Source of the DNA: Armatimonadia bacterium
GTDB taxonomy: Bacteria > Armatimonadota > Zipacnadia > Zipacnadales > UBA11051
DNA: 42,584 bases
Direction: 5' to 3'
NCBI GenBank assembly: GCA_039683575.1
Contig: JBDKRC010000087.1
Coordinates: forward strand, 1 to 42,584
Every line of letters starts with the position of its first letter. The stretch's first letter is position 1. Below the pieces are notes generated by a model. It saw only the letters and a list, made by a program, of their open reading frames with translations, did not search any database and was not told the DNA's origin. Below are positions 2 through 26,537 of this stretch, piece after piece. The position numbers were made by a program, and so were the translations under genes.

Positions 2-436
2 ACCAAACGCCTTTTAGTTAACATCCGCCTGAAAGCGAAAACCCCAGAACACGGGGGTTCTGGGGCTTCTGGTGAGACTTGTGTTAACCAAACCACGAAT
101 GGTTCGGATCTAGTACAAATTGGCTCCGCACGACGTAGCAGGATCCGAACCTGTGCCATCATAGACGCATGGGGAGATCTGGACTCCCGCCGCAATGCCG
201 CCGAGTTCGTGTTGCACTACGGGAAGCCCCCCGCCGATGCCCCTGAGGTCTCAGAATCTTCAGCGCCTTGCCCACGGGAAACAACTGAGCAACGGGCGGT
301 CAGGTTTCAACAGATGCTGGCTTCAGGCGAGGTTACGACACGGGCAGATTTAGCCCGTCACCTCGGTGTGGCTCGGTCCTACGTGACTCAGGTTTTGAGG
401 CATCTGCCAGCGGCGGCGCTGGAGGCATCCATATAG
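2..436 (+). CDS. 5'-partial CDS ending in an HTH domain; probable C-terminus of a large serine recombinase-type protein
   Basis: The frame of track ORF 209..436 is open from base 2 (TKRLLVNIRLKAK...NGSDLVQIGSARRSRIRT...). The C-terminal QQMLASGEVTTRADLARHLGVARSYVTQVL is an HTH of the kind seen at or after recombinase C-termini. No catalytic domain is in the window. Confidence 0.45.
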   Translation, partial: TKRLLVNIRLKAKTPEHGGSGASGETCVNQTTNGSDLVQIGSARRSRIRTCAIIDAWGDLDSRRNAAEFVLHYGKPPADAPEVSESSAPCPRETTEQRAVRFQQMLASGEVTTRADLARHLGVARSYVTQVLRHLPAAALEASI

Positions 437-560
437 AAGGGGTGTCGTCCCCAAAATCTGGGATCGGCGGAAGCGCCCTTCCTCGCACCACCCTATTCTG
501 ATGACGGGGGGGCTTCTCCAGCGGCGCAGCGGCAGGGGGTCCCCTATAGGGACTCCCTGC

Positions 561-1475
561 TCACTCCTCCCCGTCTTCCCCCGCCGCCCGGTCGAGATGA
601 CTGCGCAGGTCTCGCTCACTGGGACGGCAGTATATCTGAGCCGTGGTTGCCACTGAGGAGTGGAAAAGTATGGCGGCGCAGTCGGGTAATGGCACTCCAA
701 GTTCACTAACGAGCATTTTCGCCAGAGCATGACGTGCTTGATGAATGCCCTTGAGTTGTGAGCGCAGGTCGTCAGGCACGAACCGTGCCAGCCTGCGGTG
801 CCAGATATCGTGCAGGGTCCATCTCGTGATCGGCTCGAAGGGATACTTCTCCGAAGTGAACAGGTAGTCGTGCTGCACGGGCGGTCGCACTTTCATCCAC
901 GCCGCCAGCGCCTCCCTCGCTTCTACATTCAGGGGCACCGAGTAGGACCGCCCTTCCCCGCCCTTTACCACGTCATAGGTGATGCTGCCGCTTCGGGCTT
1001 TGATGTCCACGTTGGAGAGTTTGGCGTGGGCAATGCTGCTGGCTCTGGCTCCCGTCCACATCGCCACGTAAACAATGGCACGGTCACGAACGCTCAACTT
1101 CCCCGCCGCCCGAAAGATCGCCATTCTCTCCTTCTTGGTGAAGCCCGATGGCGCAGGCTTCTGGGTCTGCGGCAACTTCGGCATTCTGATGCTGGTCAGC
1201 ACGGCGGGAGCCAGCAGTTTGAGCATCGCCCTGATGGAACCGAACTTCCGCTGTACCGTCCCCGCCTGACAGGTTTTGAGCAACCACGTCCGAAACTCGG
1301 CAAGGTCCATGCTGGTCAGGGCTACATCGTCAGGGTCAATGCCGTTGCCGTAGGTGCCGACATACCATTCTTCCAGCCCACGGCAGTCAATCTCGACTCT
1401 TTGGCGGCTGGAGTCCATCAGGTCCTGCTTCGCCAGTTCTTCCCGCAGTCTGCTGATGAAAATGCTCTCGCTCAT
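561..1475 (-). CDS. Tyrosine recombinase/integrase (XerC/phage integrase family, with N-terminal core-binding domain)
   Basis: Catalytic set present: TGAR (R), VVKG (K), HQARH (HxxR), LFHSS (H) and QIY (Y). Start re-called to the ATG at 1475 (MSESIF), which follows a GGGGTG RBS-like sequence. Confidence 0.9.
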   Translation of the reverse strand: MSESIFISRLREELAKQDLMDSSRQRVEIDCRGLEEWYVGTYGNGIDPDDVALTSMDLAEFRTWLLKTCQAGTVQRKFGSIRAMLKLLAPAVLTSIRMPKLPQTQKPAPSGFTKKERMAIFRAAGKLSVRDRAIVYVAMWTGARASSIAHAKLSNVDIKARSGSITYDVVKGGEGRSYSVPLNVEAREALAAWMKVRPPVQHDYLFTSEKYPFEPITRWTLHDIWHRRLARFVPDDLRSQLKGIHQARHALAKMLVSELGVPLPDCAAILFHSSVATTAQIYCRPSERDLRSHLDRAAGEDGEE

Positions 1476-1802
1476 GGCTTTCACCCCTGCTAGTACAGTC
1501 TTCGTGGGCTGAATTGTTTTCTTTAGCCCCAGCCCCGGGTCCAACATCAGAGTTGGTCAGGGGGTTCCGATATAACAGAGTGCGACTAGCGGGTGATATG
1601 CTTCGTGGGGCAGCATGGCTGAGGTTTCGGATCGACCTTACCTATTTGGGCGGGGCTCTGCTCAATCTGTTGGGCTATAGGTTTCGTCACTGGAGGAGAT
1701 TTCGGCGGTGACAGTCGCAGGAGAGATTCGACCGAGGCGTCTGTCTGGGGATCACCGTTTCTCAGCCACAGTAACAGATGAGATCAGTGACGCTTCATAG
1801 GG

Positions 1803-1893
1803 ATCTTGGGGCACCTAGGGACATCTTGGTCATCTTGCCCAAAAGCCCAGCCGAACCCAACTGGGACCTAGATGACCAACATGGACCTAGATG
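1803..1893. repeat. Array of short (~9-11 bp) CATCT(T/A)GGT-type repeats arranged as two opposed sets
   Basis: GGACCTAGATG is exact at 1864-1874 and 1883-1893. Inverted imperfect copies ATCTTGGG, ACCTAGGG, CATCTTGGT and CATCTTG lie at 1803-1837. Confidence 0.55.
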
Positions 1894-2177
1894 TACCTAC
1901 CTATCCCTATATCTCTAGATTTCCTTCTTCTTCGCAACTTCAGGTTTTGACATACGTGAGCGTCGTATAACGAGAACCCGCCGCCCCGCCGACGGGCAAG
2001 CCGCCTGCTCTTCACCAGCCCCCACGAAAACTCCGACAGCATTCCATTAGAGATTTACCTAATGCGTGGGACCAGAAGCCAGCCAGACGGCTCGTGGCTC
2101 CTGACCTGCCGAGATTTCTCGTGCGCCGTGCGCCGTGCGGCTTGCCGAAAACTCGACGGGGGCTCGTCATGGGGGAT

Positions 2178-2400
2178 TGTAAACGCCGGTTGGAAAGTGC
2201 GGCGGGTCTTGTGGCGGTTTGGAAGTGCGGCACCCTATAATCTGACCGGGATGCGGGTTTTTTGCCGGCGGCGTGGGAGCGTCGCTGAAGCGGGCTCGGT
2301 CCTGGAGGAATTGGGGTGTATGCCGATATGCATTGGTGGAGCGAGATCCGTCGTCGAGTGTTAGTCGAAGGGGTCAGTAAGCGCGAGACACTGCGTCAAG
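2178..2400 (+). mobile_element. istA: IS21-family remnant: left end plus the first ~28 codons of istA
   Basis: Terminus TGTAAACGCCGGTTGGAAAGTGCGGC at 2178, with an internal second copy GGCGGTTTGGAAGTGCGGCACCC at ~2213-2235. The ORF at 2316 (MYADMHWWSEIRRRVLVEGVSKRETLRQ) resembles an IstA N-terminus, then similarity is lost. Confidence 0.75.
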
Positions 2401-2426
2401 GCGAAACCGACCGCGCGGACTTCGTC

Positions 2427-2764
2427 TGGATCCCGCGACGACCTGATACACGCGGTGGGCCAACAGCTCAGGTAACTGGTGAGCGATCTTCCGCGGATCG
2501 CGTCCATCGGCCAGGCAGGCCGCCAACTGGCGCGCAAATCCGAGCCGTCAAGCGGCCGCGGCGACCAGCATCAAGCCGCCGTCGCTGGAGATGTCACCGC
2601 CGTCAAAACCACCCGTCAGGCGTTTGCCATGAAGGATGCCAAAGGCATCTGCTCAAGACACTGTGTCATACCGGGGAACCTCACCGAAATGTGCTTCCTT
2701 TGGCGTAGAAGGCTATTTCGACGGCTCTCCGTTGTCCTTCGTTGCGGCTCATGAATAATCCGGG
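2427..2764 (-). mobile_element. IS1380-family remnant: left end plus a degraded transposase N-terminus
   Basis: Minus-strand translation from ATG 2669, with a frameshift and an internal TGA: ...GFDGGDISSDGGLMLV...LAACLADGRDPRKIAHQLPELLAHRVYQVVAG, the IS1380 N-terminal signature. The terminus reads CCCGGATTATTCAT from 2764. Confidence 0.75.
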
Positions 2765-3961
2765 TTAGAAGGCCCAGTCGATCCGAGTTGTGAAGAAGTC
2801 TTCCTTGGCCTGCGAGGTCCCGAACAGGTCTACAGTCCGCCGAGAGTATTCCGTGTGCCAGGCGATGTTGTCGGCGAGGTAGTAGCGCCCAGCGACAGTC
2901 CAGCGCTTTATGTCTGCACCCGGTCCGTCGGGCGTGTTCACCAGGTCATACCGCGCCACACCGACCCACTTGGTGCTGGGCAAATACATCGCCTGCAAGA
3001 ACCCGCCCGAGAACACGTAGTTCCCAGGCCTTCCGGCCAGAGCCGCGTCATCGCTGCCCCGTAGGTATTGCAGGTCAAAATTCCACTCGCGCAGATTGAC
3101 CGCTGCATCGAGTCCCCAGCGATTCAGGCTGTGACGCTCGTTCGCCAGCAACGCGTCTGCCGGCCGGGCCTCGCCGAAGTATGCCACGGCTCCCAGTCGC
3201 TGGCCCGCAGTCTGCCCTTCCCCGGGGCCGAAGACCTTGACCGCACGCAGGTAGAGGTCCGAGGGCGCGTCAGAGGAGGTGTTCGTCGTCGAGCCATCGA
3301 CCCATCCAGCGCCGTAGCGCAGCCCGCTACGGGTCCCGCCGGACAACTCCACTCCCGTCTGCGTTGCGGCCAGTGACAAGCCGCTCGGGCCCGTGAAGTC
3401 GTAGATCTCATACGGCGCGATGGTCAGCAGTCGCTTGGCGCTGAACGGCAGCCAAGCGCCTTCGAAGCGGCCCACGCGGGCATTCAGATTCAGGCTGGTG
3501 ACATGGCTGAAGACAACGTTCGCCATCTCTAGCGTACCGCTTTGGGCGGCCAGTCCGCGCGAGCCGCGAATCTCGGGCAGGTAGACCAGGAAGTAGCCGA
3601 TGTTCTGCTTGACCAGCCCCGCGGACAGGATGTCGAGGCCGCCGACCTGGAGCTCATTGACATTCTGGGCCTTCGGCGTGTTGCGGAAGCGATCGCGGTT
3701 ATAGCCGAAGTTGGTGCGCCCGGCAAAGGGCGCAGGACCATCCAGCACGGTCTGCTCGTTCTCCTCGCGACCAGGCAGTTGATAGCCATTGTTGCGATAC
3801 CGCTGGCCGAAGTCGTTGAGCCGCGGGTAAGACGAATGACACATGGTACAGCTGAACCCGTACTTGCGGGCAAACACCGGGACTGCGTGTGCGGGCGTGA
3901 TGACTGCCGGCAGGCAGCCCGCGATCACGAGGAAACAGAGTATGCGAGTTGACATTCCCAT
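2765..3961 (-). CDS. Cyc2-like monoheme cytochrome c fused to an outer-membrane beta-barrel
   Basis: Signal peptide, then AVPVFARKYGFSCTMCHSSYPRLNDFGQRYRNNGY (PxFAR...CxxCH...PxL..FG.....GY). The rest shows amphipathic beta-strand patterning and ends in an aromatic residue (IDWAF). Confidence 0.8.
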   Translation of the reverse strand: MGMSTRILCFLVIAGCLPAVITPAHAVPVFARKYGFSCTMCHSSYPRLNDFGQRYRNNGYQLPGREENEQTVLDGPAPFAGRTNFGYNRDRFRNTPKAQNVNELQVGGLDILSAGLVKQNIGYFLVYLPEIRGSRGLAAQSGTLEMANVVFSHVTSLNLNARVGRFEGAWLPFSAKRLLTIAPYEIYDFTGPSGLSLAATQTGVELSGGTRSGLRYGAGWVDGSTTNTSSDAPSDLYLRAVKVFGPGEGQTAGQRLGAVAYFGEARPADALLANERHSLNRWGLDAAVNLREWNFDLQYLRGSDDAALAGRPGNYVFSGGFLQAMYLPSTKWVGVARYDLVNTPDGPGADIKRWTVAGRYYLADNIAWHTEYSRRTVDLFGTSQAKEDFFTTRIDWAF

Positions 3962-3984
3962 GATCTAAGGTCCTCCAGCAGAGG

Positions 3985-5001
3985 CTATCTGGGCATTTCC
4001 GGCTCTACCACGACCACCGGATCGCCCGTCAGCGCCTTGAGGTATTCGACCAGGTCAGCCTTCTCCCGCCGCGACAGTTGCAGAGGCAGCATCATCGGAT
4101 CGAGGTTCGGGTTCGGCACCGAACCCAGGTCATAGAGGTCAATGACCGCTTTCAGGGTCGGTTCCGACCCGTCGTGCAGGTACGGCGGGGTTATCGCTAC
4201 ATTGCGCAGCGTCGGGGTGCGGAAGGCGCCCATGTCGCGCCGGTTCTTGGTGACTTCGTACCGCCCCACGTCTGCGAACTTCCCGCTCTTGTAGCCGATG
4301 CCAAGATTGTGGTAGCCCGAATCGCTGAAGGCAGGTCCACTGTGGCAGGCCATACAGTGTCCTTTGCCCTGAAACAGCTTCATGCCACGGACCGCCGAGG
4401 CGGACATCGCATCGCGGTTGCCCTGCAGGTACTTGTCATAGGGGGAGTTGCCGGAGACAATGGTGAGCTCGAAGGATGCAATGGCCTTGGCCACGCCGTC
4501 AACAGTCGGTTCGGTCCCAAAGGCTGCCTGGAACATCTGACAGTATCCGGGAATGACCTTCAGGCGCTCTATCAGCTTCGGCAGAGGCAGATCCATCTCG
4601 ACGGGATTGGCGACGGGACCCACTGCTTGCTTCTCGAGATGGACGGCGCGACCGTCCCAGAACTGCGGGATGATGTAGCCGGCATTCAGGATTGTGGGCG
4701 AGTTGCGGCCACCCTTCTTGTGGTCCACGCCCTCAGACACCGGCGTGACATCGGCCCATCCTGCATCCGGGCGATGGCAAGTGGCGCAGGATACGGTGCT
4801 ATCGCTCGATAGCCGTTTGTCAAAGTAGAGCGTCTTACCCAGAATGATCTTCGCATCCGACTGAGGGTTGTCTGACGGCACGGGGATCGGCGGCAGCAAC
4901 CCGTTCGCCATGAACCCGCCCCCCGCCACCACCCCATGCGTCGGCAGTAGCAGCGCCCCCAGCACCAACAGACCAAAACCTAAGCAGACCAGTCTCTTCA
5001 T
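3985..5001 (-). CDS. Di-heme cytochrome c peroxidase (CcpA/MauG family)
   Basis: Signal peptide, two heme motifs (CATCH, CMACH), QFWDGRA, NPVEM and FRTPTLRN...PYLHDG. Confidence 0.92.
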   Translation of the reverse strand: MKRLVCLGFGLLVLGALLLPTHGVVAGGGFMANGLLPPIPVPSDNPQSDAKIILGKTLYFDKRLSSDSTVSCATCHRPDAGWADVTPVSEGVDHKKGGRNSPTILNAGYIIPQFWDGRAVHLEKQAVGPVANPVEMDLPLPKLIERLKVIPGYCQMFQAAFGTEPTVDGVAKAIASFELTIVSGNSPYDKYLQGNRDAMSASAVRGMKLFQGKGHCMACHSGPAFSDSGYHNLGIGYKSGKFADVGRYEVTKNRRDMGAFRTPTLRNVAITPPYLHDGSEPTLKAVIDLYDLGSVPNPNLDPMMLPLQLSRREKADLVEYLKALTGDPVVVVEPEMPR

Positions 5002-5221
5002 GGAGTACCCTCCGCATAGTCGGCCTACGTTGCCGTTCTATACGCTCCACATCCGACATAGTTCGTTATTGTACACCATTGGTCACTACTCCTGCCAAAC
5101 ACAAATGCTCCAGGCCTGCCGTTCTCAAACATGGTTCACCCGCGTTCGGGAGGTGGCGCTGCTCCTCTCCCGTCTGCACTTCTTCGTGACGTCGCCCGGT
5201 AGCGCCCCCTCTTCGTGTCCT

Positions 5222-6136
5222 CTACTCCTGAGCGGCCTCAGCGACGGGGCGCGTCGCCGCATGCTTGACCAAGTAGAGGAGGCTCCAACCAGCGGACAAG
5301 GCAAGTGCGCCGTAGGCGATGATGGCAAGGGCCACGTGAATATGCAACCACAGCTTGTTCTGCAGTGCGGGGGGCAGGGGCACGTGTCCCTTCTGCGGGA
5401 AGTACAAATATCCATACATAGAGACCAGCAGGGCGATCGGCAAGGTGCCCAGCAGGGCGAAACGCTGTCTGCCGAGGTAGGCAATCTGCCCCCAAAGCAC
5501 GATGCCCCAGACGAACCACAGCGAGAAATCATACCCGCTGGTGAAGGTCAGGCGGTGTGCTTGAACGGCGCGGATGATCAGGACAATCGTGTTGCCAGCA
5601 AAGCCAGCAGCCGCGAAGCCAAAGCCCGTCTTCGACAGCGTCTGCTTCCCGCCAGCCGTGCTTAAGAGGGTGAGCAGTAAGCCGAGCAGGTAGCACACGA
5701 AACATCCCGTGGTGATGACCGCCTCGACCGTGGCGACGTCGCTGAAGCCGCCCAACAGCCGGCCGGTAGGACTGGGCCGGGCCACGCCGTAGGAATGCAG
5801 GCTCTGCAGGAAGTTCACCCCGGCAAAGGTGAAGAGAAGCGCCAGGAAGCCCGCCAGGACAATGGTGGCGGAGGTTTTGCCGGTCCATTGGCGCTGGCGG
5901 CGGCCGTGAAGGTAGCCAGCGTAAACAAGCCAAGTGACCAGCGAGGCGGTCTCCTTGGGGTCCCAGCTCCACCAGCGCTGCCAGACATACTGGGCCCACA
6001 CTGCGCCGGTGATGATGACCATGGTCAGCAGTGGAAAACCGAAGGCCACGGCCCGGTAGATATTGTTATCAATCTGTTCAAGCGGAGGCAAAGAGTTGCT
6101 CAGTGTCCCCCAGAAACTGACACGGCTTCTAGGCAC
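5222..6136 (-). CDS. ccsA: System II cytochrome c synthase subunit CcsA/ResC, with the two halves in permuted order
   Basis: The WWD domain (GAVWAQYVWQRWWSWDPKET...YLH...GVN...LHSY) comes first, followed by AHRLTFTSGYDF and PLPPALQNKLWLHIHV. The GTG start at 6136 follows AGGAGGAG and overlaps the resB stop. Confidence 0.88.
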   Translation of the reverse strand: MPRSRVSFWGTLSNSLPPLEQIDNNIYRAVAFGFPLLTMVIITGAVWAQYVWQRWWSWDPKETASLVTWLVYAGYLHGRRQRQWTGKTSATIVLAGFLALLFTFAGVNFLQSLHSYGVARPSPTGRLLGGFSDVATVEAVITTGCFVCYLLGLLLTLLSTAGGKQTLSKTGFGFAAAGFAGNTIVLIIRAVQAHRLTFTSGYDFSLWFVWGIVLWGQIAYLGRQRFALLGTLPIALLVSMYGYLYFPQKGHVPLPPALQNKLWLHIHVALAIIAYGALALSAGWSLLYLVKHAATRPVAEAAQE

Positions 6137-7670
6137 TTGTGCTCTCCTCCTGATCAGGCTCCGTGGCCGCACCAGCCACCGGCTTGCCCCCGCTACGTTC
6201 AAGCATGTCATTCCATATGCGGTTGGTGTCGTCGGCAGGGTCCCCGGCATGGCCGCAGAGCGAGAGCGTCAGAGCGGTCCGGCCCTGGCCGCGCGGCTCA
6301 AAGCCGATGACACAGCGTCTCAGCGGGAAGTAGAAGATCATCGTTAGGCCGATTATGCAGGCGATGAACCCGCCCCATACCAGCGGCAGGCCGACGTCTT
6401 TGCGGATGCCCAGCCCGGTGTACTTGGTGATGCCAATGAACCTGATCCAGCCGTCATTCAGCGACAAAGCCTCACCTGGCAGCAGCCAGCCCAACTCCCT
6501 CACCCAAGGCGTCGGCGGGCGCTGCGCCCCCCCTGTGGGCTTGGGGCCGGAGACGCCCGACACGTAGGCGAGGCTGAGGGCTGGTGTGCCGGGGTACTCA
6601 CTGCTACGCTGGTACAGCCTTCCGTTGCGGCGGACGGCATCAGGGCAGAATCGGGTAGCGACAAGCGCTCCGTGGCTGCCCGGCAGGAAGAGGGCAGACG
6701 ACTTCTGCGGCACGCTCCACATTGATCGGTCATCGCCGATCCCCGGCCCGCGTTCGAGAGGGAACGCGTGCTGCTGGGACTTGCCGCTCCGGGTTATCTC
6801 TATCTTTGCCTCGCCCAGACCCCAGTCGGACTGGCTGATAAGATACCCCTTGTAGCGCATCGTGCGATTGACCGAGATGGTCCCGCGTTGTACTTCCTGA
6901 CTGGCGCTGAGTATCCGCACCTCGCTGTAGTAGTTCTCCACTGACCCACTATCTGGGTCCCGGGCGATGGTGAAGCGGTCTACCGTGATGGCGAAGGGTA
7001 TCGTCCCGTCCTCGCTGCGGAAGCTGTCACCCTCCATAATGGTGACCCTCTGATCGACAGACAGCCGGGGGATGGCGCCCATTACCGAGCCCAGAGCAAT
7101 CAGAAACACCGCGTAGTGCACCAGCGCTTGCCCCCAGGCCGACAGGCGGCGCTTGTGCACATATAGCAGACGCAGCTCGCCTTCCGCTTCGAGGTGATGG
7201 AGGCGATAGCCATGCTTGCGCAGGGCCGGCGTCACGGCGCTGATTGCCTGTTCAGGCGCAAGCGGCACCAGCCCACTGAGTTCTCCGCCTGCCCTGAGCT
7301 TAGAGCTTGCCTCTGCCGCCGTGGGGATCCGCCAGCGGAGAGTCGCTTCCTTCCATAGTCGCCCGGAACAGGCCATCAAGCTTAGGAGCAAGACTGCGAT
7401 CAGCAGTTGAAACCACATCGTCATGTGCACATGGTCAAGCCCCAGCCGGACGATGACTCTGCCGATGAAACGCCCATAGCGCGTGGAGTAGGACTGAAGG
7501 TCACCATTCTGAGGCACGATGGCACAGATCAGCGCTGCGACCGCGATAAGCGACAGCAGTAGGAAGACCGTGCGCATCTCCTTGAGCTTCTTCCGCCCGG
7601 CGCGGATCACGTCGCCAAAGGTGATCTCCGGCTGCGGACGATCCGCTGGGCTCGGAACCGGTGTACTCAC
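6129..7670 (-). CDS. resB: System II cytochrome c biogenesis protein ResB/CcsB
   Basis: N-terminal TM followed by IVPQ, LGLDHVHMTMWF, a conserved TM His (LVHYAVFLI), ISVNRTM..KGY..SQSDW and YTGLGIRKDVGLPLVWGG. Adjacent to ccsA. Confidence 0.88.
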   Translation of the reverse strand: MSTPVPSPADRPQPEITFGDVIRAGRKKLKEMRTVFLLLSLIAVAALICAIVPQNGDLQSYSTRYGRFIGRVIVRLGLDHVHMTMWFQLLIAVLLLSLMACSGRLWKEATLRWRIPTAAEASSKLRAGGELSGLVPLAPEQAISAVTPALRKHGYRLHHLEAEGELRLLYVHKRRLSAWGQALVHYAVFLIALGSVMGAIPRLSVDQRVTIMEGDSFRSEDGTIPFAITVDRFTIARDPDSGSVENYYSEVRILSASQEVQRGTISVNRTMRYKGYLISQSDWGLGEAKIEITRSGKSQQHAFPLERGPGIGDDRSMWSVPQKSSALFLPGSHGALVATRFCPDAVRRNGRLYQRSSEYPGTPALSLAYVSGVSGPKPTGGAQRPPTPWVRELGWLLPGEALSLNDGWIRFIGITKYTGLGIRKDVGLPLVWGGFIACIIGLTMIFYFPLRRCVIGFEPRGQGRTALTLSLCGHAGDPADDTNRIWNDMLERSGGKPVAGAATEPDQEESTSA

Positions 7671-8161
7671 TTATCTCTACCCTCTCCGCCGGATGACGGC
7701 TGGCCCTTGCTGTCGAGGAAGGTGGCCCGCGCCGTGATCGGCGGCTTGTTTGGGTTGGGGAGTATCGGTGGCTTCCCGCGAAAAGTAGCCCTTGTAGTAA
7801 GGCATCAGCCAGGCGTTGGTTACGCCGTGCTTGTGGCTGGCGGCGCCGATCAGTTCAAGACGCAGCACGTCTACGCTTTCGGATCGAGATGGCTGTTGGC
7901 GGCGCAGAGCTCAATCGCCTCGAAGATGCCCTTGTCCGGGATGCCCATGGTGTGTCCGCAAAGCTTCATCGTAGTACTTTTCGGACAAGTCAGTCGATTT
8001 CCGTGTGGGTGGGGCGGGGACCTTCCAAGTTGCGGGAGGTATGGCCCAGAGGGCGTTCCCCAACCCCAGGCAAGGGGTTGTCATCCTTGTATATTCACTC
8101 AAAGCTCCGTTTCGGGAAGTCGTTACCTTACGCTTGGTGAATATGCCAGTCTTATAGCTAT

Positions 8162-8191
8162 ACCTACTGCCCCTGGCCAGGGGCAGTAGGT
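8162..8191. repeat. Perfect 30-bp palindrome
   Basis: ACCTACTGCCCCTGG|CCAGGGGCAGTAGGT. Confidence 0.85.
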
Positions 8192-8597
8192 CGGGCGCGG
8201 CAGACCGTTTCATTCTCGGTCCTAAAGGCCGCCGCTCAGCTTGGTCCCGCGTCCGTCCCGTTGCGCCCGAACACTTGCCAGGTCGGTCGTGAGACCGTAT
8301 CTGCAAGGTTGGGCCCACACGGGGAATACCCAACATCACAGCAGTGCTTCGTTGGAATCGATGTCACCTAAGGTCGTCTGGTGTCGCCGTACTTCCCCTG
8401 GAGGCCGTGGGCCTCCGGTCGATCGAAAGACCGCCCCCCAATCCCCTCCGCCGGCGGATGTGCTGAACCGCGCTATCAGGCAGAATGTCCATAGCGATAG
8501 CGGCGCGTCAGGCGTCACTTGCGGCCGGCCTCGCGGAAGAGCTCCATGAGTTCGCGGTCACGAGTGACGTCCGCCCGCGCCCGAGCCCCGGCGCTCG

Positions 8598-8920
8598 GGA
8601 TGCCACCGGGTCTATGTCGGCTCCCAGTCGGTCTCTGCCGCGACTCTGGACGAGTATGAAAAGGGGGAGACGGTCCAGGAGATTGTCGCGAGCGTCCGCA
8701 TCTTCCGTGAGTATGGGATCATACCCCACGGCATGTTCGTTCTGGGCAGCGACAACTATGATGTGCGGACCATCCGCGAGACCTCCCGCTTCGCCCTCCG
8801 CCATGGCATCAACAGTGTCTGGTTCATGGCACTAACGCCACTTCCGAGAAACTGGAGGCTGCCGGGCGCATCTTCGAGCGGAACTGGCGGCTCTACGATG
8901 GCCAGCACGTGGTGTTTGAT
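8598..8920 (+). pseudogene. Remnant of the C-terminal part of a B12-binding radical SAM protein
   Basis: GCHRVYVGSQSVSAATLDEYEKGETVQEIVASVRIFREYGIIPHGMFVLGSD...FMALTPLP, then after a frameshift RIFERNWRLYDGQHVVF. No CxxxCxxC motif or start upstream. Confidence 0.65.
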
Positions 8921-9017
8921 CCGAGCAATAAGAGTGCGGCACAGCTGCTGCGTGAGACGTGGCGGGCGCAGGAGCACAATTCGTCTTAGCACTACAGCCG
9001 CATAGGAAAGACAGACC

Positions 9018-9365
9018 ATGGACAAGAAGACCTTCATCGAGGGTATCGCAGTCGGAGCCGTGGCGGGGGCCATCGCAGGGCTCCTGCTGGCGCCGAAGAC
9101 AGGCCAGAAAATGCGCGACGAGATCAAGGCTCACTTCGCGGAGATCAAGGACCAGATCGTCGCGAAGCTCGAGGCGGCAGACGACTTCACGCAAACGAAG
9201 TATGAAGAGGTCGTCAAGGCCGTCATCGCCGAGCTCGAGGCGGCCAAGAAGATCACGGGCGACGAGGCGCAGGAGATGGCGAGCAGACTGCAGGACGGCT
9301 ACGAGGCCGTCAAGCAGACGATCCACGAGCACACCGCCGGCGACGAGTCACCGACGACCGCGTAG
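9018..9365 (+). CDS. YtxH-like general stress protein
   Basis: GAVAGAIAGLLLAPKTGQKMRDEI signature followed by a helical tail. Confidence 0.85.
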   Translation: MDKKTFIEGIAVGAVAGAIAGLLLAPKTGQKMRDEIKAHFAEIKDQIVAKLEAADDFTQTKYEEVVKAVIAELEAAKKITGDEAQEMASRLQDGYEAVKQTIHEHTAGDESPTTA

Positions 9366-9440
9366 CCGACGCGGAGACCCGGGCAGGCCGGCCCGCGTAA
9401 CTGTCGACTGCAATCGCCAGTAGCCAAAGGCTGAAGACAA

Positions 9441-9689
9441 ATGGGCATACTGGGCTGGATCATCCTCGGTGGCGTGGCGGGCTGGATTGCTTCCGCCCTG
9501 ACCGGCAGTCGCGAAGGCTGCCTGATGGATATCGTGATCGGCATTGCCGGCGCGCTGATCGGCGGGTTTCTCTTCTCACATTTCGGCCACGCACCCGTGA
9601 CGGGCCTGAACCTGGCGAGTCTACTCGTGGCGGTGGTGGGCGCGGTCATTCTGCTGCTCGTCGTGCGCGCCATCCGCAAGCGGTCCTGA
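9441..9689 (+). CDS. GlsB/YeaQ/YmgE (transglycosylase-associated) stress membrane protein
   Basis: WIILGGVAGWIAS...DIVIGIAGALIGG...VAVVGAVILL. Confidence 0.9.
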   Translation: MGILGWIILGGVAGWIASALTGSREGCLMDIVIGIAGALIGGFLFSHFGHAPVTGLNLASLLVAVVGAVILLLVVRAIRKRS

Positions 9690-9759
9690 GCGTTCGCGGG
9701 CGGGTGAAGTGGCGTTCGGCCTGACAGCGTCTCTGTCCAACGCGGAGGAAGGCACAGGT

Positions 9760-11088
9760 ATGGAACCAGAATCGAAAGGAGATGAACTAGAGAGAGAGAG
9801 CCGTCAGGCCGGACCGCTTGGCCGCGTCGCGGTCTACCTCAAGTCGCTCGGGCCCGGTCTGGTCACGGGGGCGGCGGATGACGACCCCTCGGGGATCGGC
9901 ACGTACTCCCAGACCGGCGCGCAGTTCGGCTACGCCCAGCTTTGGACCTCCGTGCTGTGTCTGCCCTTGATAATCGCCATCCAGGAGATTTGTGCCCGCA
10001 TCGCGCTGGAGACCGGGCGGAGCCTGGCGCAGAACATGCGCCTGCACTACCCACGTTGGCTGCTGTATTCCTGCGTGGGGCTGTTGGCCATCGCGAACAT
10101 TGTCAATATCGGGGCCGATCTGGGCGCGATGGCTGCCTCCGCCCGGATGCTGCTGCCTTTGCCGCATCTGCTTTGGCTGCTGGCTATCACAGCAGTCGTC
10201 GTCTTGTTGCAGGTCTTGGTGGCGTATCACGCCTATGCGAGGTTCTTGCGGTACGCCACGCTCTCGCTGTTCGCGTACATCCTGGTGGCTTTCTGGGCCA
10301 AACTGGACTGGCAGTTGGCGCTACGCAGCACGGTCATCCCACTGCTCCGCTCCGACGCGGATTACCTCATGAACATCGTTGCCATTTTGGGCACGACCGT
10401 CACGCCCTATTGCTTCTTCTGGCAGGCGAATCAGGAGGTGGACGAACAGATCGATGAAGGGTTGAGATCGCCGAAGTCACGCAGTGGCGTGAGCGGGGGG
10501 GACCTGAAATGGATGCGCTCCGACGTCGTCAGCGGGATGCTCGTCTCACAGGTCGTCTGCTGGTTCATCATCGCTACCACGGCCGCCACTCTCCACGCAC
10601 ACGGGATAAGCAACGTTGATAGCGCCCCTAAGGCGGCCGAGGCGCTCCGACCCCTGGCAGGCAATCTGGCATATGTGCTATTTGCGGGTGGCATCATCGG
10701 GACGGGTCTACTGGCCGTTCCCATTCTGGCGGGGTCTGCCGGGTATGCGATCAGTGAGTCGTTTCACTATCGCGCCGGGCTGGCTCTGGATTGGCGGCAC
10801 GCTCGCGTGTTCTACGGCGTCATCGCGGTGTCAACCGTCATTGGCATGGCACTCAACTTCATCGGCATCAACCCCATGAAGGCGCTGTACTACTCGGCCG
10901 TGCTCAATGGAGTGATCGCACCGCCTTTGATGGTCATCATCATGCTGATCAGCGGCGATGGCCGGATCATGAGGGACCGCACGAACAAGGCATGGTCGAA
11001 GGCTGTGGGCTGGGCCGCCACCGGGATCATGAGTGTGGCTGCGATTGCCCTGGTCGTACAACTGCTGATGAGACATGGCGGGCAGTAG
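9760..11088 (+). CDS. NRAMP-family divalent metal transporter
   Basis: LGPGLVTGAADDDPSGIGTYSQTGAQFGY and ILGTTVTPY motifs, multiple TM segments. The ATG at 9760 follows GGAGG. Confidence 0.9.
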   Translation: MEPESKGDELERESRQAGPLGRVAVYLKSLGPGLVTGAADDDPSGIGTYSQTGAQFGYAQLWTSVLCLPLIIAIQEICARIALETGRSLAQNMRLHYPRWLLYSCVGLLAIANIVNIGADLGAMAASARMLLPLPHLLWLLAITAVVVLLQVLVAYHAYARFLRYATLSLFAYILVAFWAKLDWQLALRSTVIPLLRSDADYLMNIVAILGTTVTPYCFFWQANQEVDEQIDEGLRSPKSRSGVSGGDLKWMRSDVVSGMLVSQVVCWFIIATTAATLHAHGISNVDSAPKAAEALRPLAGNLAYVLFAGGIIGTGLLAVPILAGSAGYAISESFHYRAGLALDWRHARVFYGVIAVSTVIGMALNFIGINPMKALYYSAVLNGVIAPPLMVIIMLISGDGRIMRDRTNKAWSKAVGWAATGIMSVAAIALVVQLLMRHGGQ

Positions 11089-11207
11089 CGGACCCGTGTA
11101 CTGCCCGGCCGGCCCGAGAACTCAGCAGGCTTCGCCTGCGTCTGAGAGCGGGAGCCAGGTTTCGGGCTTTGCGGCGCATCAGGGGCCAATAGGGAGGCGG
11201 AAGGCTG

Positions 11208-12125
11208 GTGAGCAGAGTCAAGACCAGGCTGCAGTCGAAGTGCGCGAGCGGGAGACCGAACGCCGCGGTGCGGCAGGAGACGCCGAAGGCGCCACCGCAA
11301 CCTGCGACCTCGACCCACGCCGACCAACCCAAGACGACAGGGGTTGCCGATCAGCGACCCATCTGCAAGCGGCTATTCCGGCACCTGGGGAGCTTTCGGG
11401 GGAGCTTGAATGACGGAATGGCGGCGCACCTCGAGAAGCATGGCAAGTCGGGGGGTAATGCGCTGCGAGCGGCAGTCCTCGGGGCCAGCGACGGCCTGGT
11501 ATCCAACTTTACCCTCGTCATGGGCGTGGCAGGCGCGAATCTGCCAGCGAAGAGCATCCTGCTGACAGGTCTCGCCGGCTTGCTCGCAGGCGGCATCTCG
11601 ATGGGCCTGGGTGAGTGGATTTCCGTGCAGAGCTCGCGTGAGCTTTATCAGGAGCAGATTCATGGAGAGAAAGACGAGATTGCGGCGGCGCCGGCGCGTG
11701 AGACAGCAGAACTCGTCTTGATCTACCGGGCGCGCGGGTTCGACGAGGAAACGGCACGGACGATGGCGACGCGCATGATGGGCGACCCGGATACGGCCCT
11801 GGACGCGATGACGCGAGATGAGTTGGGGATAGACCCGGCCAGACTCGGCGGCTCGGCGTGGGAGGCGGCCGTCGTGTCGTTTATCCTGTTCATGGTCGGA
11901 GCCTTCATCCCGGTCCTTCCCTACTTCTTCCTCAGCGGCGTGACGGCAGTGAGCGTAAGCGCAGGCGCCAGCGCAGCCGGGTTGTTTCTCGTGGGGGGGG
12001 CGATCACGAGGCTCACCGGCAAGTCGGTGCTGTGGTCGGGAGTCCGGCAGGTGGCCTTCGGTCTCGTCGCCGCTGCCGTGGTCTTTCTCATCGGCCATTT
12101 GATCGGCACTAAGCTGGGAGGCTGA
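11208..12125 (+). CDS. VIT1/CCC1-family Fe/Mn transporter
   Basis: LRAAVLGASDGLVSNF, GLLAGGISMGLGEWISVQS, ELGID and SFILFMVGAFIPVLP. The start codon is uncertain. Confidence 0.9.
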   Translation: MSRVKTRLQSKCASGRPNAAVRQETPKAPPQPATSTHADQPKTTGVADQRPICKRLFRHLGSFRGSLNDGMAAHLEKHGKSGGNALRAAVLGASDGLVSNFTLVMGVAGANLPAKSILLTGLAGLLAGGISMGLGEWISVQSSRELYQEQIHGEKDEIAAAPARETAELVLIYRARGFDEETARTMATRMMGDPDTALDAMTRDELGIDPARLGGSAWEAAVVSFILFMVGAFIPVLPYFFLSGVTAVSVSAGASAAGLFLVGGAITRLTGKSVLWSGVRQVAFGLVAAAVVFLIGHLIGTKLGG

Positions 12126-12132
12126 CGGCCAG

Positions 12133-12355
12133 CGGAGTTGGGCGTGGTGCTTCTTCCAGCGCTAGAACGTTGCCTCGGCCACGCCCATCTTCCGGCAGAT
12201 CTCCGCCACCGCCGTACCATTTTCCGCCTGCTATAGGGCGAACACGGTTGGGGGTTCCGTATACCGTTTGTGCTCCATGATCCTCGTCCTCCTGAGAGCA
12301 ATATACCCTTCATTGACTCTCATTCCAAGTGGACCAAGATTCGGGGTTCAGAGCA
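12133..12355 (-). mobile_element. IS3-family remnant (left IR plus degraded orfA)
   Basis: IRL TGCTCTGAACCCCGAATCTTGGTCCACT starts at 12355. AGGAGG RBS, then ATG 12278: MEHKRYTEPPTVFAL*QAENGTAVAEICRKMGVAEATF*RWKK, with two in-frame TAG stops. Confidence 0.8.
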
Positions 12356-12683
12356 ACGGACTGGCCCGCGCCCACCACAGCGTGCCGATCCGCAGTATCG
12401 GCCCTGTAATGGTTCACGTCTCCCCGAGATGCGCAGACGTACCGCGTCCATCCGTGCCTCAAAGCGCGGTGTGAACTGGTGCGGCACGTCCTAACGTCTG
12501 GCTAGATAAGCTCACGGGCGGCGACTGCTGTCGTTCACCCACGAGAGCGGAGTCGGAACAAAGCATCAGGCTGCTACCGCGCTCTACGACCCTCTCATTC
12601 TCGGCGGCAGCTTCGGAGGCCAAGGCCCTACCAAGTGGCACAACGGCTTCCGTCAGGCGCGGAGCGCCCAAGGGAGATCGACA

Positions 12684-14798
12684 GTGGACAGGAAGAAGAC
12701 GACTGCCAAGTCCGGCACACGCAAGGGAGACAGCAGGTCAGCTCCCAGCGGCGATGTACAGATCGCCGCCGGCGGTGAACTGCACCAGATCGCGGGTGGC
12801 CCGCATCCCGCGTTGACCACCAACCAGGGCACGCCTGTGTCCGATAACCAGAACTCGCTACGGGCCAACCCGCACGGCCCGTCACTGCTGGAAGACTTCG
12901 TACTGCGCGAGAAGATCACGCATTTCGACCATGAGCGCATTCCGGAACGAATCGTCCACGCGCGGGGCACGGGTGTGCATGGCTTCTTCGAGCTTACGGA
13001 TTCGTTGGAGCAGTACACTATCGCCCGAGTCCTCAGGGAGGTCGGGGAGCAGACGCCGCTGTTCGCGCGCATTTCGACTGTCGCCGGTGGCGCGGGCTCG
13101 GTCGACACGGCCCGCGACGTGCGTGGATTCGCCGTGAAGTTCTACACCAAAGAGGGAAACTGGGACTTGGTCGGCAACAACATCCCGGTGTTTTTCATCC
13201 AGGATGCGATCAAGTTCCCCGACCTGGTCCATGCGGTGAAGATGGAGCCGGACCGGGCGTTCCCGCAATCGGCTACCGCACACGACACTTTCTGGGATTA
13301 CATCTCCCTCACTCCCGAGTCCATGCACATGGTCATGTGGATCATGTCCGATCGCACCATCCCGCGCTCGCTGCGGATGATAGAGGGCTTCGGGGTGCAC
13401 AGCTTCCGCCTTCTGAACGCCGCAGGCGAGTCAACCTTCGTCAAGTTTCACTGGCGGCCCAAGCTAGGGCTGCAGTCCACGATCTGGGACGAGGCGGTCA
13501 AGATCGCTGGCGCCGACCCGGACTTCCACCGGCGGGATATGTTCAACGCCATCTCCGGTGGGGACTTCCCCGAGTGGGAACTGGCGGTTCAGCTTTTCAC
13601 CCAGGAGGAAGCGGACAGCTTCCCCTTCGATCATCTGGATGCGACCAAGCTGATCCCCGAGGAGTTGGTGCCGCTCCGCGTGATCGGTCGCATGGTCCTG
13701 AACCGCTGGCCTGATAACTTCTTTGCCGAGACGGAGCAGGTGGCATACTGCCCGGCGAACATAGTGCCGGGCATGGACTTCTCCAACGACCCCTTGCTGC
13801 AGGGGCGCCTGTTCTCCTACCAGGACACGCAGCTTTCACGCTTGGGGTCTCCCAACTTCCATCAGATACCGATCAACGCGCCGAAGTGCCCCTTCGGCAA
13901 CCACCAGCGTGACGGCCATATGCAGATGGCTCAGCCCAAGGGGCGTGTGGCGTATGAGCCCAACTCCCTGTCTCAGGACTCGCCTCGCGAGGCGGCAGCC
14001 GCCGGCTTCCGCAGCGCGGCAGTGGACGAGACAGGCGCGAAGGGACGTATCCGACCGGAGAGCTTCGCCGACCACTACAGCCAGGCGCGCCAGTTCTACC
14101 TCAGCCAGACGGCGCATGAGCAGGCGCATCTCGCCTCGGCGCTGGTCTTTGAGCTGTCGAAGGTAGAGCACGTGCATGTGCGCGAGGCGATGGTGGGTCA
14201 CCTGCGCCATATCGATGACGACCTCGCGAACCGTGTTGCTACCGGTCTCGCGCTCGGTAAGCTCCCGGAGGCCCCCCTGGCGGCTGCGCCCGTGCAGAAG
14301 TTGCCCCTCTCACCGGCGCTGCAGATCATCGGCAAGATGAAGGACACGCTCACGGGGCGCGCGGTCGGCATCCTGATCGCGGATGGTTCAGACGGCGCGG
14401 CTGTTGAGGCGATAAAGCAGGCAACCCTGGACGCGGGTGCCCGGGTGACGATCATAGCGCCCCGAGTTGGCAGCGCGGAGCTCCGCGACGGCTCGGTGCT
14501 GGCCGCTGACGGCCAGTTGGCGGGGACACCGTCCGTATTCTTCGACGCTGTCGCCGTCATCCTCTCAGCCGAAGCAGGCAAACTGCTGTCGACTGAGGCC
14601 GCCGCGATTGGCTTCGTGCGTGACGCTTTCGGGCATCTCAAAGCCATCGCCGTCGACGAAGGCGGGCAGGCTCTACTGAAGGCAGCGCAGTTGAAACCAG
14701 ATGCGGGTGTCGTGGATGCCAGCGACACCGACGCCTTCATCACCGCCGCCAAGACGCGCCAGTGGGAGAGAGAAAAGTCCATTAGGACACTGGCATAG
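12684..14798 (+). CDS. katE: Large-subunit monofunctional catalase HPII with C-terminal DJ-1/GATase-like domain
   Basis: [31 protein letters not shown] and RLFSYQDTQ; 704 aa. Confidence 0.96.
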
Positions 14799-14807
14799 CC
14801 CCCGTTG

Positions 14808-14846
14808 CGCACAGCGCCCGGTGTGCCTCACACCGGGCGCTGTGCG
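14808..14846 (+). terminator. 18-bp perfect hairpin directly after katE (no U-tract)
   Basis: CGCACAGCGCCCGGTGTG-CCT-CACACCGGGCGCTGTGCG. Confidence 0.5.
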
Positions 14847-15431
14847 TAAGGACCCATATGTCCGGCGTGCGCCACTTCGCCAGCCTTTAGGTCGCCCCCA
14901 CCTAACTATTGTCGTTAGGCGACTTGCCTACTGTCCATTCACCCAACAACAATAGTTGATCCCACGGCCTGGCCTCGGCATTTGAGGCTGGCGCGAACCC
15001 CATACATCAGCTACAGATACTTCCCAAAGAACTCATATGCCTCTTTGTTGGCGGAGGCATGCTCGCCCGGATGGTATTCATCATCAGTGCCAGGACGACA
15101 TTCACGCACTGCCTACTTCCCCCGTCCAGAGCCCAATAATCCAGCAGACAGCGGTTGTGGAGGACTGTAGTTGGCAACAGCGCCCAAGCACGGGACGCGG
15201 AGCAACGCCGCCAGCGCGGGGCAGCACCTGGGCCTCGAGGACCAGGACCCCCGGAGATGCTGCCGGGGCCTGACCGGGGCAACCGCCGCGAACCGCTTAC
15301 CGGCGGCGCTCGTCAATGGGAGACGCGCAACACGCACTGCGGCGTCTGGCGAGGTCGCCAGCCTCGCCAGGTCCGGCGTGCCCACCCTGATACTGAGCAG
15401 AGACCCCGGCAGACCATAGGAGACGATCGAA

Positions 15432-16760
15432 ATGCTACGCAGTATCAACAGTATGGTCGGCTACGCCATCCGGGCCAGGGATGGTGACCTGGGGAAAGTG
15501 GTCGAGTTCTATTTCGATGACAAGACCTGGACGATTCGCTATCTGGTGGTGGAAACCGGGACCTGGCTGTCCGGCCGCAAGGTGCTCCTGTCACCGGTGG
15601 CCCTGGGCGAACCGGACTGGGAGTCGCGGACGTTCAGCGCCAATCTCACTATCGCACAGGTGCGCGACAGCCCCGACGTTAACACCGCCGGACCCATCTC
15701 TCGTCAGCACGAAATGGATCTGTCGGGGTATTACGCCTGGCCGATGTATTGGGGCAGCCAGTACTCGAGCGGCACCAAGTACGGAACTGCCCCGTTCGGG
15801 CCGCAGATGTACATCAAGACAGAATCGCAGGATGAAGGATCAACCCCGGAGAGCCATGGCGACCCGCAGTTACGCAGCACCGGGAGAATCACCGATGACC
15901 ATGTCGAAGCCACCGACGGCGCCATCGGACACGTGGAGGACTGCATCATTGACGACCAGTCGTGGATGGTGCGCTTCCTGGTCGTGGAGACACACAACTG
16001 GCTACCAGGCGGGAGAAAGGTGCTCATCGCACCGGAATCGATCATAAGTGTGGAATGGGACGAGTCCAAAGTGATCGTGGGTCTCTCGCAGGAAGCCATC
16101 GCGGGCAGCCCCGAGTTTGATCTGCGGCAGCCGGTCAGCGCCGACTATGAGGGCCAACTCCACGACTACTACGGCCGGCCCAGCGGCCAGCCATCAGGAG
16201 CGGGCGGGACCATGCCGCAGCGAGTGACTGACACGAACGGCCAGGACGTCGGCGTGTACGTCCGGCGCGTGGACACGGCGAAGGGCGAGGCGGTTCTGAT
16301 CCAACGGGCAGAGAGACTGGGGGGCGGAACGGTTGTGCTCCAGGCCCGCGATGTGGAGCAGCGAGGCCAGGAGTGGCGGGTACCCTATGAGGATCTGGCC
16401 ATCCTCGAGGCCCCGCCGCTTTCGCCCAACGTGGCACTGGACGCCTACCTCGACTTCTGGGATCGACTGGGGACCGGCGACATGAACAGTTCGCTCGACG
16501 AGTTCATGGCGTCGGGCAGCGGGCCAGTGGACTCCCAACAGGACGTTCCCGACGCGCAGATCGAGGCGATGGTGAAGGAGCGCCTGCAGGATACAGAGGG
16601 CGTGGAGCACCATCTGGTGCGCGTGAGCGTCAACAAGGGCACGGTGCTCCTCGAGGGCTATCAGGGCGACGCTTCAGGCCGCCTGGCCGCGGCCCAGGCC
16701 GCGGCCGCCGTACCAGGCGTGAAGGAGATCGTGAACATGCTCGTGATCCGGGCGCTCTAG
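15432..16760 (+). CDS. Tandem PRC-barrel protein fused to a C-terminal BON-domain module
   Basis: Two repeats of A.DG..G.V.....DD..W.(I/V)R(Y/F)LVVET..WL..GRKVL, and a C-terminal V..GTVLLEG...AAAVPGVKEIVN.L (BON). Confidence 0.85.
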   Translation: MLRSINSMVGYAIRARDGDLGKVVEFYFDDKTWTIRYLVVETGTWLSGRKVLLSPVALGEPDWESRTFSANLTIAQVRDSPDVNTAGPISRQHEMDLSGYYAWPMYWGSQYSSGTKYGTAPFGPQMYIKTESQDEGSTPESHGDPQLRSTGRITDDHVEATDGAIGHVEDCIIDDQSWMVRFLVVETHNWLPGGRKVLIAPESIISVEWDESKVIVGLSQEAIAGSPEFDLRQPVSADYEGQLHDYYGRPSGQPSGAGGTMPQRVTDTNGQDVGVYVRRVDTAKGEAVLIQRAERLGGGTVVLQARDVEQRGQEWRVPYEDLAILEAPPLSPNVALDAYLDFWDRLGTGDMNSSLDEFMASGSGPVDSQQDVPDAQIEAMVKERLQDTEGVEHHLVRVSVNKGTVLLEGYQGDASGRLAAAQAAAAVPGVKEIVNMLVIRAL

Positions 16761-16822
16761 CAGCAAGGGCCAACACTCGGTTGCATCCGGCAAAGATCAG
16801 CGCGACATGCGATGAGAGAGCC

Positions 16823-22510: not shown

Positions 22511-22904
22511 GGCCTCACCTTTCAAGAGCGATAGGCGCGAGCATCCGCGAAAAGCCTTGCGTACGCAGTTGGAGTTTGTGCATGGTTGGGGCGGAACCGA
22601 CACCTGTTCCAAAGTGACAAACGCTCCGTTCCCCGGGAGACATTCCTTCTCGCACTGTCTGGCGATCTCCTGCCAGTGGTATAGGCAGGAACCAGGCCCG
22701 TGGTCGCTGACGGCACTCGCCAGACCGTGTGACGAGCGCGATAGCATCGCCAAAGGCGCGACCGTCCGGACCATGCCGCGCGTCTTCGACGCTCACTCAA
22801 CCCGCGCTGCGACCGGGTAGATCGGGTGGGATTGGCAGCCAAACAAATGCACACGCAGTCATTGAGTGCTTGACGTTCCAGGAAAGACATGGGTCAGACA
22901 GATG

Positions 22905-22951
22905 TTGACATACGTCGTAATGGACATTATGATATGCAAATATCCGCATAT
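22905..22951 (+). promoter_or_regulatory. Sigma70-type promoter with an overlapping ArsR-type inverted repeat
   Basis: TTGACA (22905)-17 bp-TATGAT (22928). ATATGC-N8-GCATAT at 22932-22951. Confidence 0.75.
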
Positions 22952-22970
22952 CCGCATGATAGGTGACATC

Positions 22971-23336: not shown

Positions 23337-23382
23337 TCGGTGCGCCGGTGCAGCACTCGGAGGCGGGAGAGAGGAAGCAACT

Positions 23383-26164: not shown

Positions 26165-26165
26165 T

Positions 26166-26486: not shown

Positions 26487-26510
26487 GTGACTACTTTTCT
26501 TGTTGCCTAT

Positions 26511-26531: not shown

Positions 26532-26537
26532 CCAAGT

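Follow-up and report, generated by a model that had tools for sequence, protein, structure and literature searches.

A circularly permuted, probably functional CcsA/ResC subunit of System II cytochrome c synthase in an order of the Armatimonadota

The gene described here lies in a stretch of 42,584 nucleotides from an Armatimonadia bacterium (assembly GCA_039683575.1, contig JBDKRC010000087.1), and this whole stretch is called the window in the following. At 5222-6136 on the reverse strand, the window encodes a protein of 304 residues, P0001, which we read as a genuine and functional System II CcsA/ResC subunit whose polypeptide is circularly permuted. From the sequence evidence set out below, we put the probability of this reading at about 85%. 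CcsA/CcsBA serves as a model for haem transport across a membrane and for haem attachment to proteins, and to our knowledge all described members have the same helix order. The features of the gene and its partner are listed below (TM, transmembrane helix; numbering of helices as in canonical CcsA).

6129-7670, reverse strand: resB/ccsB, 513 amino acids, Pfam ResB with E 3.4e-55, the sole ResB in the genome; its stop overlaps the ccsA start
6144-6151, reverse strand: Shine-Dalgarno sequence AGGAGGAG, 7 nt 5' of the GTG and within the 3' end of resB, read from the sequence
5222-6136, reverse strand: permuted ccsA/resC open reading frame (ORF), 304 codons plus stop (5222-5224), GTG start at 6136
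5786-6091, reverse strand: module 1, residues 16-117, equal to the canonical C-terminal part (TM6, WWD loop, TM7, TM8 and P-His2 loop)
5951-5983, reverse strand: WWD haem-binding motif WQRWWSWDPKE, residues 52-62, from the translation
5906-5908, reverse strand: codon of TM-His1, H77 in TM7, from the alignment to 7s9y
5795-5797, reverse strand: codon of P-His2, H114, from the alignment to 7s9y
5747-5785, reverse strand: linker, residues 118-130 (13 residues), joining the old C- to the old N-terminus on the predicted periplasmic side and left unaligned between the two BLASTP segments
5255-5746, reverse strand: module 2, residues 131-294, equal to the canonical N-terminal part (TM1-TM5, RLTFTSGYDF loop and PALQNKLWLHIHV motif)
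5336-5338, reverse strand: codon of P-His1, H267 in the PALQNKLWLHIHV motif, from the alignment to 7s9y

The order of the two modules follows from four comparisons. With the Pfam profile PF01578, residues 8-114 of P0001 correspond to profile positions 104-212 of 212, which is the better of two matching stretches; when the whole genome was scanned with this profile, 5795-6160 matched positions 102-212 and 5255-5530 matched positions 6-102. The genome scan with TIGR03144 placed 5786-6211 on positions 106-252 and 5231-5608 on positions 4-131. For the solved CcsBA structure 7s9y, query residues 30-123 align to chain residues 811-906 and query residues 154-290 to chain residues 650-784. BLASTP against P0087, a canonical CcsA of 270 amino acids, aligns query residues 16-117 with 168-269 and query residues 131-294 with 1-163. 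The nearest canonical relatives agree, with residues 16-117 matching their last ~100 residues and residues 131-294 their first ~165. With E-values between 1e-21 and 1e-58 and an arrangement that is repeated in many independent sequences, we regard a chance origin of the match pattern as excluded. All four comparisons show the swapped order, which places the break in the TM5/TM6 loop of canonical CcsA.

The initial annotation, which was made from the letters of the window, had proposed a natural permutation of CcsA/ResC with its break in the large cytoplasmic loop, in an intact, resB-coupled and probably functional gene. This proposal stands. The alignments to 7s9y and P0087 are not colinear and the halves match in swapped order, the break maps between canonical TM5 and TM6, the frame is open over 304 codons and overlaps resB by 8 nt, and the order recurs in other sequences. 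The motifs that it quoted are all found in the translation in the order given, namely LPPLEQID, YR, GF, WWSWDPKE, YLHG and GVN..LHSY, followed by the linker GVARPSPTGRLLGG and then by AHRLTFTSGYDF and PALQNKLWLHIHV. The former C-terminus of CcsA reads ...LHSYG, and the linker begins directly after it.

Membership in the family is not affected by the rearrangement. The score against PF01578 is 134.4 bits, which exceeds the cut-off of 29.9, and the TIGR03144 score of 196.1 exceeds the cut-off of 187.6 only when the two out-of-order stretches are summed, as each alone is below it in the genome scan. The WWD motif, P-His1, P-His2 and TM-His1, by which CcsA and the haem-handling family are recognized, are all present. 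P0001 departs from the colinear architecture of both models, in which the N-module precedes the C-module. The tree described below nests P0001 inside the canonical CcsAs, so that the swapped order concerns architecture and leaves descent untouched.

The GTG at 6136 is favoured as the start over the ATG at 6250 because it agrees with the N-termini and lengths (~300-315 amino acids) of the homologues. With this GTG, the overlap of ccsA with the end of resB (stop codon TAG, 6129-6131) is 8 nt, whereas it would be 120 nt with the ATG.

Full-length proteins with the same order are common among the closest relatives. The database set comprised the 80 best proteins beyond the window's own, from many sources and with 40-84% identity. 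The swapped order was found in 77 of them, and the remaining three are fragments of one module. The 39 proteins that rank next are CcsAs with the canonical, colinear order. Database names of the homologues are 'CcsA' or 'ABC-type transport system…permease'. We also searched 79 genomes of the class, 67 from the order of the window's source and 12 from other orders. In 19 genomes, every one of them from this order (19/67, against 0/12 elsewhere), a match is colinear with P0001 over its full length. Ten of the 12 genomes of other orders have a canonical ccsA, and two have none.

These results bear on the simplest alternative, an assembly or binning artefact in which a mis-joined contig placed the 3' half of ccsA before the 5' half. 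The source is a draft genome of 352 contigs, and a low-depth contig (X1) from a DNA run matches 5502-5752, diverges inside the linker and continues with 61 unlike letters. However, the first 30 of these letters stay in frame without a stop (hand translation only), which suggests that a strain whose linker differs in sequence occurs alongside. The linker is spanned by a DNA contig of another study (5711-5858), a contig from an RNA library bridges the junction of resB and ccsA, and the homologues are too divergent for one shared pipeline error. The read evidence consists only of assembled contigs that match the window, with parts of the gene left uncovered, and no run contained half the words sampled. 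A rearrangement at assembly with no independent homologue, which the initial annotation had named as the outcome that would overturn its proposal, is contradicted by the contig of the other study and by the homologues, and we consider an artefact to have a negligible chance.

Conservation was examined across 54 permuted sequences with identities as low as 38%. W56, W58, D59, K61, E62, H77, H114 and H267 are invariant in all 54. By alignment, H267, H77 and H114 are equivalent to H761, H858 and H897 of 7s9y, which are labelled P-His1, TM-His1 and P-His2, respectively (PMC11322641, Table 1), and WQRWWSWDPKE aligns to the WWD loop of the same structure. The span from P-His2 to E138 in the first helix of module 2, which includes the linker, is 21-25 residues in 54/54 permuted homologues. 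A confident AlphaFold2 model of P0001 built on the alignment of these sequences (pLDDT 85.6, pTM 0.86) shows a single domain with eight long helices.

The two modules behave as separable units, and the TM5/TM6 loop takes insertions of 100-200 residues in canonical proteins. Both would fit a split CcsA with reordered genes, made as two polypeptides by means of an internal start near the linker. Yet no stop separates the modules in any of the 54 sequences, the linker length is tightly conserved, and AlphaFold2 gives one compact chain, which together make a split protein very improbable; a start or ribosome-binding site near the linker was not seen either, though no search aimed at one was made. 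The insertions (~100-200 residues) lie in the cytoplasmic inter-module loop of P0127, P0128, P0129, P0234, P0237, P0271, P0322 and other canonical CcsAs. Since they occur at the permuted break, the TM5/TM6 loop can be regarded as a permissive site.

The association with resB is equally constant. In the 16 loci of relatives in which upstream DNA is available, resB lies directly upstream of the permuted ccsA (16/16), with an overlap of 4 or 8 nt. H185 of ResB is invariant in 10/10 partners of permuted CcsAs. ResB matches the Protein Data Bank (PDB) only weakly; H185 is aligned there with a histidine close to residue 95 of 25vk, a fused synthase, and is thus a candidate for TM-His2. In the window, resB and ccsA are two ORFs and not a single CcsBA polypeptide. 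Single-ORF fusions of ResB with a permuted CcsA, 718-822 amino acids long, are found elsewhere (L015 of genome G425 at 1462-3618, L016 of genome G426 at 1474-3852, and P0122-P0126), and two more proteins of 471-474 amino acids, truncated at the N-terminus, have the same join. These natural fusions argue for binding between ResB and CcsA.

For the tree, the modules were cut out by hidden Markov models built from canonical proteins, the linker and termini being excluded, and were aligned separately and then joined. The alignment had 92 rows, after removal of rows with >80% identity, and 264 columns; the tree was inferred by a quick search and rooted at the midpoint. A single branch (SH-aLRT 96) sets all 49 permuted rows apart. 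Their nearest neighbours are canonical CcsAs that belong to the same class but to other orders (84 and 95), and 40 other canonical rows lie outside the permuted clade and these neighbours. Because so many canonical rows lie outside its clade, the permuted form is the derived one. Groups inside the clade track genome families. This pattern fits a single origin and vertical descent of the permuted form.

A second origin was not found among the 150 best representatives of 1.84 billion proteins, in which all 143 new proteins run N-module then C-module; of the other seven, six belong to the permuted clade and one is the canonical P0087. Among 71 longer relatives, 66 are canonical in order and five are ResB joined to a permuted CcsA. 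The 16 proteins elsewhere in the phylum that matched with the C-module only proved to be 15 canonical proteins and one fragment at a contig end. An independent permutation was therefore not found in these sets, and more distant cases could exist. The permuted form would have arisen once, in an ancestor from which a single order of the Armatimonadota descends. The likeliest route would be a head-to-tail, in-frame fusion of two ccsA copies followed by loss of the outer halves, which is the simplest origin because the linker joins complete old termini.

Canonical lineages often carry two ccsA genes ~2-3 kb apart on one strand (G404:C99, G403:C27, G402:C44 and G367:C16, as well as G126, G085, G171 and others). 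These are probably two resB-ccsA pairs in tandem.

In our working model, the chain would begin in the cytoplasm with canonical TM6-TM8, where the membrane histidine and the WWD and P-His2 loops are located. A periplasmic linker of ~13 residues would connect the former C-terminus to the former N-terminus, and the chain would continue through canonical TM1-TM5 and end in the cytoplasm after the P-His1 helix. This topology, with both new termini on the cytoplasmic side together with the short basic loops, and with the linker in the periplasm, is predicted because the WWD motif and the P-His residues lie on the outer side in characterised CcsAs, a location that the accessible parts of PMC5526843 and PMC10663686 give for WWD and for both P-His. 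A short linker suffices because both ends of the canonical eight-helix CcsA are outside.

As far as described in the accessible part of PMC10663686, a four-helix core is common to CcsBA, CcmC and CcmF, with P-His1 on one core helix and P-His2 after the last one. The new termini, in the cytoplasmic TM5/TM6 loop, would fall between the first and second helices of this core. By alignment, the permutation parts the P-His1 helix from the other three core helices in the chain. The folded protein would be equivalent to canonical CcsA. Haem would be taken from the cytoplasmic side together with ResB, through ResB H185 and CcsA H77, passed to the outer site formed by WWD, H267 and H114, and attached to CxxCH motifs. 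Reductant would come from CcdA and a ResA-like protein, which are encoded 26 kb away.

The genes around the synthase and the thiol-reducing branch are the following.

3985-5001, reverse strand: di-haem enzyme of the MauG/MbnH/CCP family with 2 CxxCH (Pfam CCP_MauG, E 2.4e-56; NCBIfam MauG and MbnH below their cut-offs)
2765-3961, reverse strand: protein of 398 amino acids with a signal peptide and a C-terminal part that resembles a porin (Porin_4 of Pfam matches below its cut-off; nothing matches in NCBIfam)
2760-2777, reverse strand: terminator-like hairpin just 3' of the last gene of the four-gene unit, from a consensus scan only
32432-33115, forward strand: CcdA/DsbD-type membrane thiol reductase (DsbD_TM), the sole one in the genome
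33140-33652, forward strand: ResA-like thioredoxin-fold protein adjoining ccdA (NCBIfam ResA, E 2e-22, below cut-off)

The source genome, which is 96% complete, contains one PF01578 gene (the permuted one), one ResB and one CcdA, and no Ccm genes were found in it. The genes for ResB, CcsA, the MauG-like protein and the porin-like protein run head to tail as a four-gene unit, and the consensus scan gave no terminator-like site between ccsA and the MauG-like gene. The porin-like protein, whose gene directly follows that of the MauG/MbnH-like enzyme, has a single CxxCH ~40 residues from its start; it may be a haem protein of the outer membrane that forms a pair with the peroxidase-like enzyme. 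Both proteins are probable clients of the permuted CcsA. In the whole genome, the MauG/CCP-like protein is the sole match to PF00034 (Cytochrom_C), PF13442 has no match above its cut-off, and a crude ORF scan found no multihaem protein. CcdA and the ResA-like protein supply the thiol-reducing branch of System II, and this pair presumably serves the permuted synthase.

Several other genes were observed nearby. An integrase gene (561-1547) adjoins the unit of resB, ccsA, mauG-like and porin-like genes, which may be an acquired, self-contained module; there is no tRNA gene in the window. The regions 9018-14798 and 22866-33652 are rich in genes related to oxidative stress and metals, namely YtxH, Nramp, VIT1, a large catalase, ArsR, an HMA protein and thioredoxins, together with a thioredoxin-MerB fusion, an AhpC-thioredoxin fusion, CcdA and the ResA-like redoxin. 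At 27167-29858 on the forward strand, four DGC-domain genes stand in a row behind a small ferredoxin-like gene, and one of the four is fused to a glycine-cleavage H-protein domain.

The neighbourhoods of the permuted genes differ between relatives. The permuted form is the only kind of PF01578 gene in G235, G227, G122, G271 and G409 (5/5 tested), with two copies in G122. With the source genome included, six genomes have the permuted gene as the sole haem-handling gene, and five of the six encode proteins that bear CxxCH or a cytochrome domain; for the sixth, G409, the finding is limited to HZS_alpha matches. G227 encodes a CCP as well as class I cytochromes. Proteins with HZS_alpha domains are encoded in G235, G337 and G409, and those with cytochrome c7-type domains in G337 and G271.

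Two loci, L059 in G122 (9321-18611) and L063 in G332 (3153-10597), share a conserved operon that ends in resB and the permuted ccsA. It encodes a NapC/NirT-like cytochrome with 26 or 32 CxxCH and cytochromes with 6 and 11 CxxCH, the last of which has a cytochrome b561-type membrane domain in G332. In locus L058 of G158 (422-15241), resB-ccsA is flanked by genes for three proteins of 950-1220 amino acids with a middle domain of the hydrazine-synthase-alpha type (HZS_alpha). They have 2-3 CxxCH each, and two of the three have F5/8 type C domains.

The initial annotation had further suggested a dedicated maturase for the two downstream cytochromes. For the source genome this is borne out in part, as the permuted CcsA is the sole enzyme and the two proteins are its sole visible clients; for the family, it does not hold. 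A tblastn search found homologues of the MauG-like and porin-like proteins within 1.5 kb in 0/16 of the relatives' loci, which have multihaem or HZS_alpha neighbours with CxxCH instead. The two genes were hence rejected as family-wide partners. CCP_MauG itself occurs in 7/67 genomes of the order, six of which have the permuted gene. From the relatives' multihaem or HZS_alpha CxxCH neighbours, which include neither of the source genome's two proteins, we infer that the permuted family probably acts as a general synthase and is not specialised.

A different possibility is that the job of the protein has shifted, to haem export or delivery outside general cytochrome c maturation or to a narrowed range of substrates. 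The variable neighbourhoods (MauG-like here, HZS_alpha in G158, multihaem operons in G122 and G332) would agree with such a shift, and a canonical CcsA of a distant clade co-occurs with the permuted copy in eight genomes of the order. Against it, the full set of four histidines and the WWD motif are retained, the clients found are ordinary CxxCH proteins, and in the six genomes mentioned above no other haem-handling gene is present to mature cytochromes. We therefore consider a shifted job unlikely, and the permuted CcsA is most likely a working System II synthase.

The gene could also be a decaying remnant of a tandem duplication, in which the ORF is open and the protein inactive. The source genome is almost without c-type cytochromes, and many genomes of the same family are without any CcsA (counts of 3/15 in f1, 0/18 in f4 and 0/9 in genus g2). 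Decay is, however, hard to reconcile with catalytic residues that are invariant down to 38% identity, with the conserved linker length and translational coupling to resB, and with the six genomes in which the gene is the sole one of its kind, five of them with proteins to be matured. We thus see very little room for an inactive remnant, and a functional permuted CcsA is the reading that we keep.

Several points weigh against this reading. A Foldseek search of the PDB with the model of P0001 gave no match at E ≤ 0.001, and 7s9y was at rank 3 with E 0.21, by an aligner that depends on chain order. VIA-align, also order-dependent, was applied to the Foldseek list and put 7s9y first (Z 12.3, root-mean-square deviation 5.8 Å, 185 residues); this result is within the noise quoted for helical bundles, and de novo helical bundles score almost equally. 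The contig from an RNA library that spans the resB/ccsA junction is single and of low depth, and the library may contain DNA. The source genome is poor in c-type cytochromes, as only the two encoded downstream were detected. In the eight genomes with a second, canonical CcsA, housekeeping does not have to fall to the permuted copy. The route of origin given above is conjecture, because neither the 71 longer proteins nor the 150 best representatives included a duplication intermediate (N-C-N-C or C-N-C). Finally, haem attachment by any permuted member is predicted from sequence, and covalent attachment to CxxCH apocytochromes by the permuted CcsA is suggested by association.

A literature search returned no description of a permuted CcsA, ResC or haem-handling protein, subscription-only papers being outside its coverage; this agrees with the initial annotation, which knew of no described example. 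It is likely that P0001 represents the first circular permutation of natural origin to be recognised among haem-handling proteins, one that cuts the four-helix core and has long served as the sole cytochrome c synthase subunit of a whole order of Armatimonadota.

If the reading is right, CcsA would consist of two autonomous folding modules, TM1-5 and TM6-8 with WWD, whose order in the chain is irrelevant, and the permuted form would offer ResB a direct cytoplasm-to-cytoplasm fusion point. A conserved permutant would also mean that the haem channel and the WWD/P-His site can form from helices threaded in another order, that the cytoplasmic TM5/TM6 loop is a permissive break point, and that the periplasmic ends of canonical CcsA must be close together. 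Experiments would thereby gain constructs that nature already supplies, and natural split and fusion sites are suggested, including a compact ResB-CcsA single chain of ~720 amino acids for structural work. It would be one of few clearly datable circular permutations in a polytopic membrane enzyme. For annotation, family models that depend on order under-score permuted CcsAs, as is seen with TIGR03144.

Among known systems, CcsA/ResC is the closest (TIGR03144 'CcsB', PF01578; e.g., Bacillus subtilis ResC and plastid CcsA). It is homologous to P0001 over both modules and shares the WWD motif, P-His1, P-His2, the membrane histidine, eight predicted helices and a coupled ResB partner. It differs in that the canonical chain runs TM1-8, whereas the permuted chain runs TM6-8 and then TM1-5 with a new periplasmic linker, and in that the canonical termini are periplasmic, whereas both permuted termini are probably cytoplasmic. 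The CcsBA of Helicobacter hepaticus (7s9y/7s9z) shares the aligned residues H761, H858 and H897 and the WWD loop. Natural CcsB-CcsA fusions are single chains, as are the relatives P0122-P0126 and those of G425 and G426, whereas the genes of the window are separate. In the fused permuted relatives, ResB runs directly into the WWD module, whereas in every one of the 66 canonical fusions examined ResB is followed by the N-module and then the C-module.

CcmC and CcmF of System I (7f02, 6zmq) share the WWD core, but their homology is much weaker and is limited to the WWD module, with CcmC matching residues 33-115 at E 1.3e-5. A permutation has also been proposed between VKOR and DsbB, in which, according to the accessible part of PMC4555120, helices are reordered and the geometry of the active site is presumably kept. 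That comparison is between distant families, whereas permuted and canonical CcsAs are close relatives within one class, with ~36-54% identity per module, and the permutation of CcsA can therefore be dated on the tree.

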